Below are positions 26,804 to 48,257 of a DNA stretch of 64,000 bases, one piece after another. The translations under genes were made by a program, and so were the position numbers. The stretch spans positions 7,753-71,752 of the forward strand of contig WRFS01000007.1 in the NCBI GenBank assembly GCA_009778695.1, written 5' to 3'. This DNA comes from Oscillospiraceae bacterium. GTDB taxonomy: Bacteria > Bacillota > Clostridia > TANB77 > CAG-508. The notes below the pieces were generated by a model that saw nothing but the letters and a program-made list of their open reading frames with translations, had not been told where the DNA came from and ran no database searches. Every line of letters starts with the position of its first letter. Position 1 is the first letter of the stretch.

Positions 26804-26832
26804 TTGCATTAATTGACAAATTGAGCTATAAT
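26804..26832 (+). promoter_or_regulatory. Promoter of pilin-like gene 1
   Basis: TTGCAT, 17-nt spacer, TATAAT, about 40 nt upstream of RBS GGAGG. Confidence 0.55.
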
Positions 26833-26873
26833 AAAATTATGTATAGGTAGTATTTTTAAAGGAGGAAAAAATC

Positions 26874-27293
26874 ATGAAAACAATAAACATGAAGAAAGTA
26901 TTGGTTACATTGGTTATTGCAGTAATATTATTAACATTAGCAACAACAGTTTTTGCATCAGATATAAACTTAGGTCAATATCAAGGAAATACAAGCGGTC
27001 AAGTTGCACAATCAGCTAATAATATAATAAATATTATATTGGGTGTAGTAAAAATAGTAGCGGTTGGAGTGGCAGTTATAATGTTAGTAGTATTAGCAAT
27101 AAGATATATGACGGCATCACCAAGTGAAAAAGGAGATCTTAAACAAAATGCTTTTAAATATGTAATAGGTGCATTGATATTATTTGGTGGCGTTGCAATA
27201 TTGCAGATGCTTCAGTATGCAGGACAACAACTTAGTCAGACGGCTATAGTTCCACAAATTGAACAAGTACAAAACATCGATAAGTTAGGATAA
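26874..27293 (+). CDS. VirB2/TrbC-like T4SS pilin paralogue 1
   Basis: Signal peptide (TTVFA|SD), hydrophobic helix, loop IRYMTASPSEKGDLKQN, second hydrophobic helix. Confidence 0.6.
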   Translation: MKTINMKKVLVTLVIAVILLTLATTVFASDINLGQYQGNTSGQVAQSANNIINIILGVVKIVAVGVAVIMLVVLAIRYMTASPSEKGDLKQNAFKYVIGALILFGGVAILQMLQYAGQQLSQTAIVPQIEQVQNIDKLG

Positions 27294-27296
27294 ATT

Positions 27297-27366
27297 AAGA
27301 AGGTAAAATATTTTCATGTGTGTCATCATAAGCATAAGTTTGCAATGTATGACACCTTCTTTTTTG
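27297..27366 (+). terminator. Terminator after pilin gene 1
   Basis: AAGAAGGT..GTGTCAT..ATGACACCTTCTT nested stems followed by TTTTTT. Confidence 0.55.
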
Positions 27367-46739: not shown

Positions 46740-46755
46740 GAGGGACTGTAAAAAC

Positions 46756-47295
46756 ATGGCAAAGCAAAAGAGTAACCGTAAAGGAATAAGCTTATTAACT
46801 ATTGGTAGTATCCTATTAGTTCTATTAATTATTGGTTTAATAATATATGGTTTGGTGGCAGACAAAAAGAATCAAAACGGAGAAACAACAAAGACTGTAA
46901 TAGACACCAATACGGGTCAAAAGGTAGATCCAAATCTTTTAGCGATATACCAAATGAGTGAATCTGACCGAATAAAGTACTATTTCAATGAATATATTAC
47001 ATATTTGGAAGATAGCAATTATGAAGCGGCATATAACCTATTAGACAAAGACTTTAAAAGTCAATATTTTAAAACATTGTACGATTTCACAAAGTATGTA
47101 CAGGAAAAGTATTTACCTGTAATGTCAGTTCAATATAATGATATTACAAGATTAGGTAATTATTATGTTTTGACAATTGGCTTTTTGGACGTATTTAACT
47201 CTACAGAAGACAATCCAGTTATATGGAAAACTCAAAAATTCATTATATATGAAAACGATTACAACGATTTTGTAATGTCGTTCCAAGCAGAATAG
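46756..47295 (+). CDS. N-terminally anchored NTF2-like protein (VirB8/TcpC-like candidate)
   Basis: TM anchor, then YFNEYITYLEDSNYEAAYNLLDKDFKSQYF..., a pattern typical of NTF2/SnoaL-like folds. Paralogous to the N-terminal domain of the next gene. Confidence 0.4.
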   Translation: MAKQKSNRKGISLLTIGSILLVLLIIGLIIYGLVADKKNQNGETTKTVIDTNTGQKVDPNLLAIYQMSESDRIKYYFNEYITYLEDSNYEAAYNLLDKDFKSQYFKTLYDFTKYVQEKYLPVMSVQYNDITRLGNYYVLTIGFLDVFNSTEDNPVIWKTQKFIIYENDYNDFVMSFQAE

Positions 47296-47309
47296 AGAGG
47301 TGAGAGGTT

Positions 47310-48257
47310 TTGTTTACAAGTTTTAGATTAAGGATAGCGAATTTCTTTAGAAAACATAAAAAAACGGTATTTGGGATATTATTAGCATGGGTAATAATAA
47401 TATTTATAAATGATTTCTTTAAAAGTAATACTTTTGAAAGTTTTCAAAGAACTACATATAGCCCTGATGTACCAATAATTGACATTACTGGTCAAACGGT
47501 ACCAGACAATTTAAAACAGCCAATAAATGATTTGGTGGATACATATTTTAATTATTGCAATACAAAGCAATATGATAAGGCATACGCAATGCTTTCACAA
47601 CAATGTAAAACCATATACTATCCAACATTGCAGGATTTTAAGGATTATGTTGATATGGTATTTAACGAAAATAAAGTATATTATATGCAAAATTATTCAA
47701 ACTACAATAATGTTTATATATACAGAATTAGAATAATGGAAGATATACTAAAAACAGGGTTAACTGGCGAAAGTGATATACAATATTATGAAGAGAAAAT
47801 TGCAATAAGTCAAGATGCGAATGGTAAATTATGGTTGTCAATTAGGGAGTTTATAACAACAGAACCTATGGACGTAGTTTATGAAGATGATTATATGAAA
47901 GTTAGAGTGCTTCAAAGGGATGTTTTTTATGAGAATGAAACGTATACTGTGGAGGTAAAGAATAAATCGGATTATATTATGGTATTAGCAGATGGCACTG
48001 AAAATCCAGAGATAGCTTTGCAGGTTGGTTCTTCAACAAGAACGCCAAATGATAGTAATTTGTATGTTGTTCTTCAACCAGGTGAAACAAAAACGTTTAC
48101 TGTGAATTTCACTAAATTTTATGATGAATCAGATCAGTCAACAGGGTTGACATTTAATGCGGTAAGAGTGCTTAAAACGTATTCAGGCTCTCCTGATACT
48201 AAGCAATATGAATTGGATAACGCAGTGAAGTTGTATAGTACACAAGTGGTATTTTAG
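47310..48257 (+). CDS. N-terminally anchored two-domain protein, NTF2-like plus beta-rich domain
   Basis: TM anchor, then YFNYCNTKQYDKAYAMLSQQCKTIYYPTLQDFKDYV. TTG start. Last gene of the co-directional block. Confidence 0.4.
   Translation: MFTSFRLRIANFFRKHKKTVFGILLAWVIIIFINDFFKSNTFESFQRTTYSPDVPIIDITGQTVPDNLKQPINDLVDTYFNYCNTKQYDKAYAMLSQQCKTIYYPTLQDFKDYVDMVFNENKVYYMQNYSNYNNVYIYRIRIMEDILKTGLTGESDIQYYEEKIAISQDANGKLWLSIREFITTEPMDVVYEDDYMKVRVLQRDVFYENETYTVEVKNKSDYIMVLADGTENPEIALQVGSSTRTPNDSNLYVVLQPGETKTFTVNFTKFYDESDQSTGLTFNAVRVLKTYSGSPDTKQYELDNAVKLYSTQVVF

Follow-up and report, generated by a model that had tools for sequence, protein, structure and literature searches.

The window analysed here, 64,000 nucleotides of DNA, comes from a metagenome contig of 125 kb (ENA ERZ27257295 k141_933053). 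The contig belongs to a metagenome-assembled genome (MAG) of the clostridial order TANB77 that NCBI labels Oscillospiraceae. The window carries a gene cluster for a type IV secretion system (T4SS) between positions 26874 and 48257. All long open reading frames (ORFs) across this interval lie on the + strand and form one co-directional block. A preliminary description of the DNA had recognised both the block and its T4SS-type gene content, and the ORF map and profile scans bear it out. The same description counted 18 genes with junctions of 1–40 nucleotides; the map instead gives 15 ORFs of at least 100 residues plus two of about 45, and 7 of the 14 gene junctions measure 55–195 nucleotides. 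The composition is host-like, as had been claimed, with a GC content of 0.31–0.37 in the block and 0.28–0.38 in the flanks.

The block opens with four genes for VirB2/TrbC-type pilins, all of which exceed the Pfam T4SS_pilin cut-off of 26.6 bits, and the earlier identification of these proteins stands. Pilin 1 (26874–27293, 139 residues) is composed of a signal peptide, two hydrophobic helices and a charged loop. It scores 32.5 bits against the TrbC/VirB2 profile (cut-off 27.9) and 26.9 bits against T4SS_pilin, and also gives a weak, sub-threshold match to the pilin-like family (Mbov_0395) of the Mycoplasma integrative and conjugative elements (ICEs). Pilin 2 (27384–27812, 142 residues, T4SS_pilin 33.4 bits) is 46% identical to pilin 1 and has a C-terminal tail rich in Thr, Ser and Pro. 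Pilin 3 (27868–28242, 38.4 bits) is 124 residues long from a GTG start, or 121 by the gene callers, and pilin 4 (28438–28836, 132 residues, 30.8 bits) is the most divergent paralogue. The number of pilin genes varies among TANB77 loci from one to nine, and is mostly three or four.

Directly upstream of the VirB4 genes is the gene for a PrgI/VirB3-like protein of 115 residues with two transmembrane segments (28849–29196). The PrgI profile scores 26.5 bits on this protein, 0.5 below its cut-off of 27, and the precomputed label is PrgI (weak). Position and size fit VirB3/PrgI, and identities among relatives are 41–70%. The next two genes encode a membrane-anchored counterpart of the VirB4 N-terminal domain (29196–30326, 376 residues), which carries the precomputed Pfam label PF26593, TraC-like, and a VirB4-family ATPase (30483–32510, 675 residues). 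Judged by alignment, the pair is a split VirB4, because the two proteins align to successive parts of one Mycoplasma VirB4 model of 894 positions, the first covering 102–220 and the second 278–892. The same split gene pair is found on Clostridium plasmids.

The ATPase scores 50.8 bits against P-loop_TraG (cut-off 25.8) and 37.3 against AAA_10 (cut-off 27.5), and it matches the crystallised VirB4 domain, PDB 4AG5, with E = 4e-23. These results confirm what had been said of it, and the alignment to the Mycoplasma model bears out the transmembrane protein resembling a VirB4 N-terminal domain. Against the CD1110-family VirB4 it reaches 195 bits, under the equivalog cut-off of 325. Its nucleotide-binding motifs are a Walker A of GKSGAGKG and a Walker B of RVLIDEAW. 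Comparison of 82 loci shows that the DEAW of Walker B is invariant; at Walker A (residues 270–280), 56 loci have GKSGAGKG and the other 26 have the canonical GKSGAGKS, so that the Ser or Thr that usually follows the lysine is often Gly.

Three proteins of 399 (32663–33862), 964 (36216–39110) and 755 residues (39117–41384; 749 residues as called) had been described as polytopic paralogues in the VirB6 position. One polytopic domain is indeed common to all three. However, their genes are not contiguous, being interrupted by those for a 364-residue protein and a hydrolase, and their identity as VirB6 is weakly supported. The 399-residue protein has no match in the Pfam scan and a weak one to the Mycoplasma ICE family MMCAP2_0566. 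Its AlphaFold model (pLDDT 69) retrieves R388 TrwI/VirB6 as the top-ranked folds in the PDB, with E values of only 0.2–0.7; the best of these matches has a TM of 0.50 and a probability of 0.85 at a non-significant E. The 964-residue paralogue combines the polytopic domain and a pilin-like hairpin with a Ser/Thr/Gly-rich loop and a long charged C-terminal tail.

The hairpin embedded in these proteins, seen also in the 399-residue paralogue, is a helix-loop-helix (IAIRMxxSxxxDKxxYK) that aligns with the VirB2-type pilins. T4SS_pilin scores on it are sub-threshold, 18.8 bits in the 964-residue and 21.2 bits in the 755-residue protein, and 16.4–23.1 bits in homologues of the 399-residue protein and in an 853-residue protein of a C. 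botulinum plasmid. The plasmid relative (L083, 13085–15646) thus has the pilin-like hairpin too. The hairpin might imitate a pilin from within the VirB6-like protein and so start the filament or provide its docking site.

The remaining proteins of the block are less readily placed. A conserved protein of unassigned family is encoded at 33889–35101 by a transmembrane ORF of 44 residues (33889–34023) and a 364-residue ORF (34007–35101) that lie in different frames and overlap by 17 nucleotides; relatives have a single anchored protein. The 364-residue family is present in 57 of 80 related loci and has no relative in Pfam, NCBIfam or PDB profile searches. The gene appears from its sequence to be frameshifted, although the split could also be an assembly error near a run of A residues or a case of translational coupling. 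The adjoining gene (35126–36175) specifies a secreted NlpC/P60 peptidoglycan hydrolase suited to a VirB1-type role; its profile score of 28.9 bits against a cut-off of 23 bears out the earlier assignment. Among the 80 related loci, tblastn detected this hydrolase in no more than 4, and the plasmid relatives have a C39-like/3D hydrolase in its place.

A protein of 1731 residues (41544–46739) shows, by eye, a charged N-terminal region, one transmembrane segment near residue 440 and a large C-terminal part rich in Asn, Ser and Leu. Pfam, NCBIfam and single-sequence PDB searches detect no domain in it, and its homologues in relatives are 23–47% identical. Two anchored proteins complete the block. 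The smaller (46756–47295, 179 residues), for which 13 homologues were recovered, appears by eye to be a paralogue of the first domain of the larger (47310–48257, 315 residues), which is modelled (pLDDT 86) as a transmembrane helix, an NTF2-like domain and a beta-sandwich domain. The NTF2-like fold proposed earlier for the anchored proteins is thus found in the 315-residue model. As to the suggested VirB8/TcpC role, the PDB matches are generic NTF2 folds (ketosteroid isomerase, the N-domain of PBP5), and the comparison with TcpC (3UB1) gives only E = 0.043 and a probability of 0.09. The protein is a candidate for a VirB8/TcpC-like role, and, taking the predicted structures together, VirB6 and VirB8 roles for proteins of the cluster are plausible.

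Genes for DNA processing and mobility are absent from the neighbourhood of the cluster. Pfam and NCBIfam scans, which covered nearly all window ORFs of at least 150 residues, revealed no type IV coupling protein (T4CP), relaxase, integrase, or replication/partition gene in the window, in agreement with the preliminary description. Precomputed gene tables for contig positions 48742–125423 likewise list no gene of these kinds, and a further 9 kb or so of contig upstream of the window and 4 kb or so downstream yielded no T4CP, relaxase, integrase or att-like repeat. Nor does a T4CP, relaxase or integrase adjoin the cluster in 80 other species, where about 10 kb on each side was searched (about 77 kb in the case of the source contig) and where no integrase or relaxase family recurs in the flanks. 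The T4CP of the sister systems on plasmids, used as a tblastn query, found no homologue in 1.79 Mb made up of the window, the contig flanks and the 80 related loci.

The only long direct repeat that brackets the block belongs to a family of 145-nucleotide intergenic elements with an AT-rich outer stem of about 33 bp and a GC-rich centre. One copy, on the + strand, lies at the 3' boundary of the cluster (48257–48401) and its bracketing partner at 21870–22014; a further copy is at 49222–49366, and cores are at 8495 and 62254. The repeat was considered as an att site and rejected because the window holds five dispersed copies of the family. All five are on the + strand, and none occurs in the 80 related loci; the family is specific to this genome. 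The element could be related to miniature inverted-repeat transposable elements or could be a structured RNA.

The cluster is widespread in the lineage. At least 588 GTDB species (one genome per species) have a relative of its VirB4, the best 80 at 72–87% identity. All are MAGs of uncultured gut Clostridia. The named ones include CAG:354, CAG:793 and Candidatus Scatovivens, of which the first and the last (CAG-354, Scatovivens) are assigned to family CAG-508 of order TANB77. A protein database search returned 6977 VirB4 relatives at E ≤ 1e-10, with the top 120 at 77–92% identity. Among 50%-identity representatives of 15 billion proteins, one full-length member stands at 65% and the next at 40% or less, and by this measure the TANB77 VirB4 is a tight and isolated clade. 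The order of pilins, PrgI, VirB4 N-terminal domain, VirB4, VirB6-like protein and so on is kept in all 80 loci examined, and no empty sites were seen in relatives. Within these loci the pilins and large proteins have diverged to 25–45% identity, against 72–87% for VirB4.

VirB4 diverges in step with its housekeeping neighbours. In 27 loci, VirB4 identity correlates with that of the flanking M16 peptidases with Spearman coefficients of 0.75–0.78, and the peptidases correlate with each other at 0.72; mean identity is 81% for VirB4 and 54–58% for the peptidases. Because VirB4 co-varies with these housekeeping neighbours as strongly as they do with one another, the sequences fit vertical descent under strong constraint. 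The flanks in relatives are chromosomal and of housekeeping type, and include M16 peptidases, NrdG, Lgt, sigE/sigG, glycolysis genes, FtsH, MutS and UvrB. The preliminary description was correct as to housekeeping flanks, but the adjacency to topA that it cited is not conserved. The topA of the window is a genuine housekeeping type (804 bits), yet topA lies upstream of the cluster in none of the 80 relatives, and in the closest species that place is taken by gap-pgk-tpi-gpmI. Conserved topA synteny is therefore ruled out, and the adjacency is specific to the source genome. In some TANB77 species (L003, L004, L006) spoIIGA-sigE-sigG lies just upstream of the cluster, and the order thus appears to keep sporulation sigma-factor genes.

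The nearest named relatives of the VirB4 are from Firmicutes: Clostridium plasmids, Heliorestis and Peptostreptococcaceae. In a plasmid collection the closest VirB4 proteins outside the clade are those of Clostridium plasmids, at 40–41% identity. C. botulinum pINGR16-02E1 and C. beijerinckii p1_circular share with TANB77 the compact order pilin, PrgI-like protein, VirB4 N-terminal domain, VirB4 and hairpin-bearing VirB6-like protein, and their clusters continue in like manner with a wall hydrolase, small proteins and a giant protein. Unlike the TANB77 loci examined, the plasmids carry a 1001-residue T4CP with a TraM-recognition domain, and tyrosine recombinases, 8–12 kb upstream. They also have one pilin gene and one VirB6-like gene, whereas the TANB77 system is chromosomal and has three VirB6-like genes.

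Further resemblances are to the Mycoplasma ICE module, whose Mbov_0395, Mbov_0397 and MMCAP2_0566 families match the pilin, the split VirB4 and the VirB6-like protein below threshold. The NCBIfam scores for the Mycoplasma and CD1110 families, each set against its equivalog cut-off, are 18.9/40, 174/590, 18.7/90 and 195/325. The Mycoplasma and C. difficile CD1110-type systems, both MPF-FATA, are located on mobile elements with DNA-processing genes.

The closest known analogue of the TANB77 system is the relaxase-less, pilin-array T4SS of Patescibacteria, which has the same functional architecture in a different phylum. Chromosomal T4SSs have been described in Southlakia epibionticum and TM7x (Wang et al. 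2023; Quinonero-Coronel et al. 2025, PMC12102498). They lack a relaxase and have 2–11 divergent VirB2-like pilin genes in arrays, and most t4cp homologues are far from virB4 (PMC12102498). Epibiotic growth of Southlakia requires the T4SS (PMC12102498; PMC12857230). Both lineages possess a chromosomal, monoderm-type T4SS with VirB4- and VirB1-like parts, with VirB3-, VirB6- and VirB8-like parts (candidates only in TANB77) and with tandem arrays of divergent VirB2-like pilins, and have no relaxase near virB4. In both, the system occurs lineage-wide in an uncultured group with reduced genomes (for TANB77, PMC11680825), and Patescibacteria, like TANB77, also have type IV pili.

There are clear differences as well. 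TANB77 is a bona fide Clostridia order in which some loci stand beside sporulation sigma-factor genes, and its cluster has features of its own: VirB4 is split, the VirB6-like protein exists as three paralogues that each contain a pilin-like hairpin, and there are the hydrolase and a giant protein. The nearest named VirB4 relatives, being Firmicutes, argue against membership of the Patescibacteria VirB4 clade by descent, and the domestication of the TANB77 system was therefore probably independent. A 2025 review of T4SSs states that VirB2 is absent from Gram-positive systems with the sole exception of Patescibacteria, which it regards as unique among monoderms in their potential to build conjugative-type pili (PMC12857230). 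A literature search found no description of a TANB77 T4SS, or of a pilin-bearing, relaxase-less T4SS in Clostridia.

A conserved pilin cluster has, however, been published for TANB77, present in 95% of species, and this is a Tad pilus cluster (Kim et al. 2024, PMC11680825). It consists of CpaB, TadZ/CpaE, CpaF/TadA, TadB/C and type IV-like pilins, with no VirB-type component listed. The cluster described here is therefore not the published one, which is of the CpaF/TadBC kind and was not located in the window. A 533-residue protein encoded on the – strand at 60471–62072 has an N-terminal prepilin methylation motif (weak Pfam match) and may be a type IV pilus component.

The explanation that we favour, with moderate confidence, is that the cluster is a lineage-fixed, domesticated T4SS of monoderm (MPF-FATA-like) type, derived from conjugation and now a chromosomal trait of TANB77, with interaction or exchange through cell contact as its likely function. 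The preliminary description had proposed a domesticated T4SS of long residence rather than a freshly acquired ICE, and the analysis supports it: in addition to the lack of empty sites, and of mobility genes with flanking repeats in the sequence searched, profile searches uphold the pilins, the VirB4 with its N-terminal domain and the hydrolase, though the PrgI/VirB3 match falls 0.5 bit short. On the simplest account, an MPF-FATA-like conjugation module, of the kind still present on Clostridium plasmids, entered an ancestor of TANB77 and then lost, or became separated from, its DNA-processing part. Since the sister plasmids carry a T4CP, loss or separation of the DNA-transfer module in TANB77 is the natural reading. 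Amplification of the pilin and VirB6-like genes would have followed, and the T4SS would since have been inherited as a core trait of the order.

The assembled machine would stand on a membrane platform composed of three elements, namely the split VirB4 ATPase, the VirB6-like paralogues and the VirB3-like protein, and the NlpC/P60 hydrolase would open the cell wall. The anchored NTF2-like proteins and the 1731-residue protein may span or decorate the envelope, while the divergent VirB2-type pilins would be drawn out of the membrane to polymerise as a filament on the cell surface. We think that the cluster does not transfer itself, because a coupling protein and a relaxase are absent nearby. By analogy with what has been proposed for Patescibacteria, the machine most likely contacts other cells and moves material across the contact, and the fast evolution of its surface parts suggests interaction with variable partners. 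Formation of a pilus, the substrate and the partner cell are what we infer here rather than what has been observed.

Several considerations weigh against this explanation. The VirB6 and VirB8 assignments depend on fold matches that are non-significant or generic, and most members of the VirB4 clade have Gly where Walker A usually has Ser or Thr. The 364-residue gene looks frameshifted, and the genome is a MAG. Even the closest species has the cluster at another place in its chromosome, so that relocation of the cluster is possible. Finally, the searches covered local neighbourhoods only, and a T4CP or relaxase could be encoded elsewhere.

This last consideration bears on the alternative that the system still conjugates DNA. 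The T4CP and relaxase would be encoded elsewhere in the chromosome or be too divergent for recognition, and the machine would act in trans to move other elements or DNA of the chromosome, for which chromosomal transfer in Mycoplasma is a precedent. The distance of most Patescibacteria t4cp genes from virB4 (PMC12102498) lends this some credence beyond the local scope of the search, as do the T4CP of the sister plasmid systems and the sub-threshold resemblance of the components to Mycoplasma ICE proteins. We nevertheless consider it unlikely, given that the 1.79 Mb of TANB77 sequence searched on and near the cluster yielded no homologue of the plasmid T4CP, that the flanks contain no recurrent integrase or relaxase family, and that lineage-wide fixation, with a mean VirB4 identity of 81%, would be unusual for a conjugation module.

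With little more than pilins, VirB3, VirB4 and VirB6, and no T4CP, the TANB77 cluster resembles the archaeal Ced and Ted import systems. This raises the alternative of an apparatus for DNA uptake or release, comparable also to Helicobacter ComB or the gonococcal island, in which a VirB2-type pilus and a VirB4-type ATPase would supply a reduced genome with imported DNA or nucleotides. Four related loci have ComEA upstream, and there are weak matches to CedB and CedD. These matches (22.7 bits against a cut-off of 700 for CedB, 25.6 against 600 for CedD) amount to generic P-loop similarity only, and no DNA-binding or nuclease component was recognised in the cluster; the proposal is distinctly unlikely.

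It is very unlikely that the machine serves mainly as a surface filament or adhesin for the animal host or food particles, or delivers effectors or toxins, and has no part in any dependence on a bacterial partner. The rapid divergence of the pilins, Ser/Thr-rich loops and giant protein and the variable number of pilin genes among species would suit such a role, and the pilus proteins of another TANB77 system are immunostimulatory (PMC11680825). No toxin, immunity or adhesin domain was recognised, however, and the conserved Tad pilus already serves TANB77 in adhesion. That the cluster is an ordinary ICE or its decaying remnant, placed beside topA by chance, is scarcely credible and largely refuted: T4SS core genes are typical ICE cargo and a 145-nucleotide direct repeat does occur at 21870 and 48257, but that repeat is dispersed, the window and the contig flanks yielded neither an integrase nor a relaxase or T4CP, the ORFs are intact and in conserved order in at least 588 species, and the block matches its flanks in composition.

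If the cluster is a domesticated, lineage-fixed T4SS, as favoured here, it is a second instance, probably independent of the first, in which machinery for conjugation has become an organelle that defines a lineage. A pilin array with a VirB3/VirB4/VirB6 core and no DNA-processing genes nearby is now known from genuine Clostridia, in at least 588 species. TANB77 is often encountered in the guts of humans and animals, and it has been reported as a biomarker of the response to checkpoint therapy; its abundant, fast-evolving surface proteins (pilins, loops of the VirB6-like proteins, the giant protein) could meet hosts or partner microbes. A bolder extension, which we regard as rather unlikely, is that TANB77 depends on physical association with other cells, with the relaxase-less T4SS and the Tad pilus as a conduit for contact and exchange; the T4SS would then be a convergent, separately domesticated Firmicutes counterpart of the Patescibacteria epibiont machinery. 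Such dependence, if true, would explain the resistance of TANB77 to cultivation. The T4SS itself offers a concrete hypothesis for the lifestyle of the order and for co-culture strategies.

Potential signals for transcription, all on the + strand, were noted in the pilin region. A promoter-like site (26813–26840, TTGACA-16-AATTAT, 10/12) upstream of the pilin 1 gene is a consensus match only. The best promoter-like site of the region (28356–28384, TTGAAA-17-TATAAT, 11/12) is upstream of the pilin 4 gene, but promoter-like sites are not enriched over the region taken as a whole. Downstream of pilin 3, a terminator-like hairpin (28261–28286), an 11-bp stem followed by a run of T recognised by pattern match only, may mark where transcription of a pilin unit stops, or may act as an attenuator.

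Two spacers within the block carry GC-rich hairpins of a repeat family that recurs in the window. The spacer at 30329–30443 (+ strand) contains, as a REP-like genome repeat, two GTAGGGG-headed hairpins and a third GC-rich hairpin, and that at 32554–32636 (+ strand) contains one GTAGGGG-headed hairpin and a shared GGGCTGGTGCCCC hairpin. GTAGGGG with a GC-rich palindrome occurs 11 times in the window against 2.3 expected, at 7369–7459, 10436–10533, 18201, 20414, 30329, 30376, 32554, 36414 and 46017, two of the occurrences being inverted doublets of 91 and 98 bp. The GTAG-headed hairpins reported earlier in the two operon spacers, tex and mfd are therefore real. A GTAG head with a palindrome is the hallmark of REP/REPIN elements, and such repeats are unusual for a Clostridia genome of 31% GC. 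The window shows no Y1 transposase, and for its GC-rich hairpins Rfam gave no match at gathering score. One doublet lies inside the tex ORF, where the reading frame stays open. The mfd gene, in contrast, is split into ORFs at 16953–18257 and 18322–21273 exactly at the repeat at 18201, and its C-terminal part (18322–21273) is fused to an SpoU/RlmB-type rRNA methyltransferase domain. An alternative genetic code had been considered as one way to account for this split.

Beyond the 3' end of the cluster, a gene for a secreted SH3-CAP (YkwD-like) protein (48479–49216, + strand), identified by profile scan, is a possible accessory gene; it is also found downstream of the cluster in loci L026 and L034. 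Further along, two paralogous genes for small PKD/cadherin-like surface proteins (50187–51210 and 52173–52973) flank a GGDEF response-regulator gene, and the pair shares direct repeats of 72–244 nucleotides at 75–90% identity.

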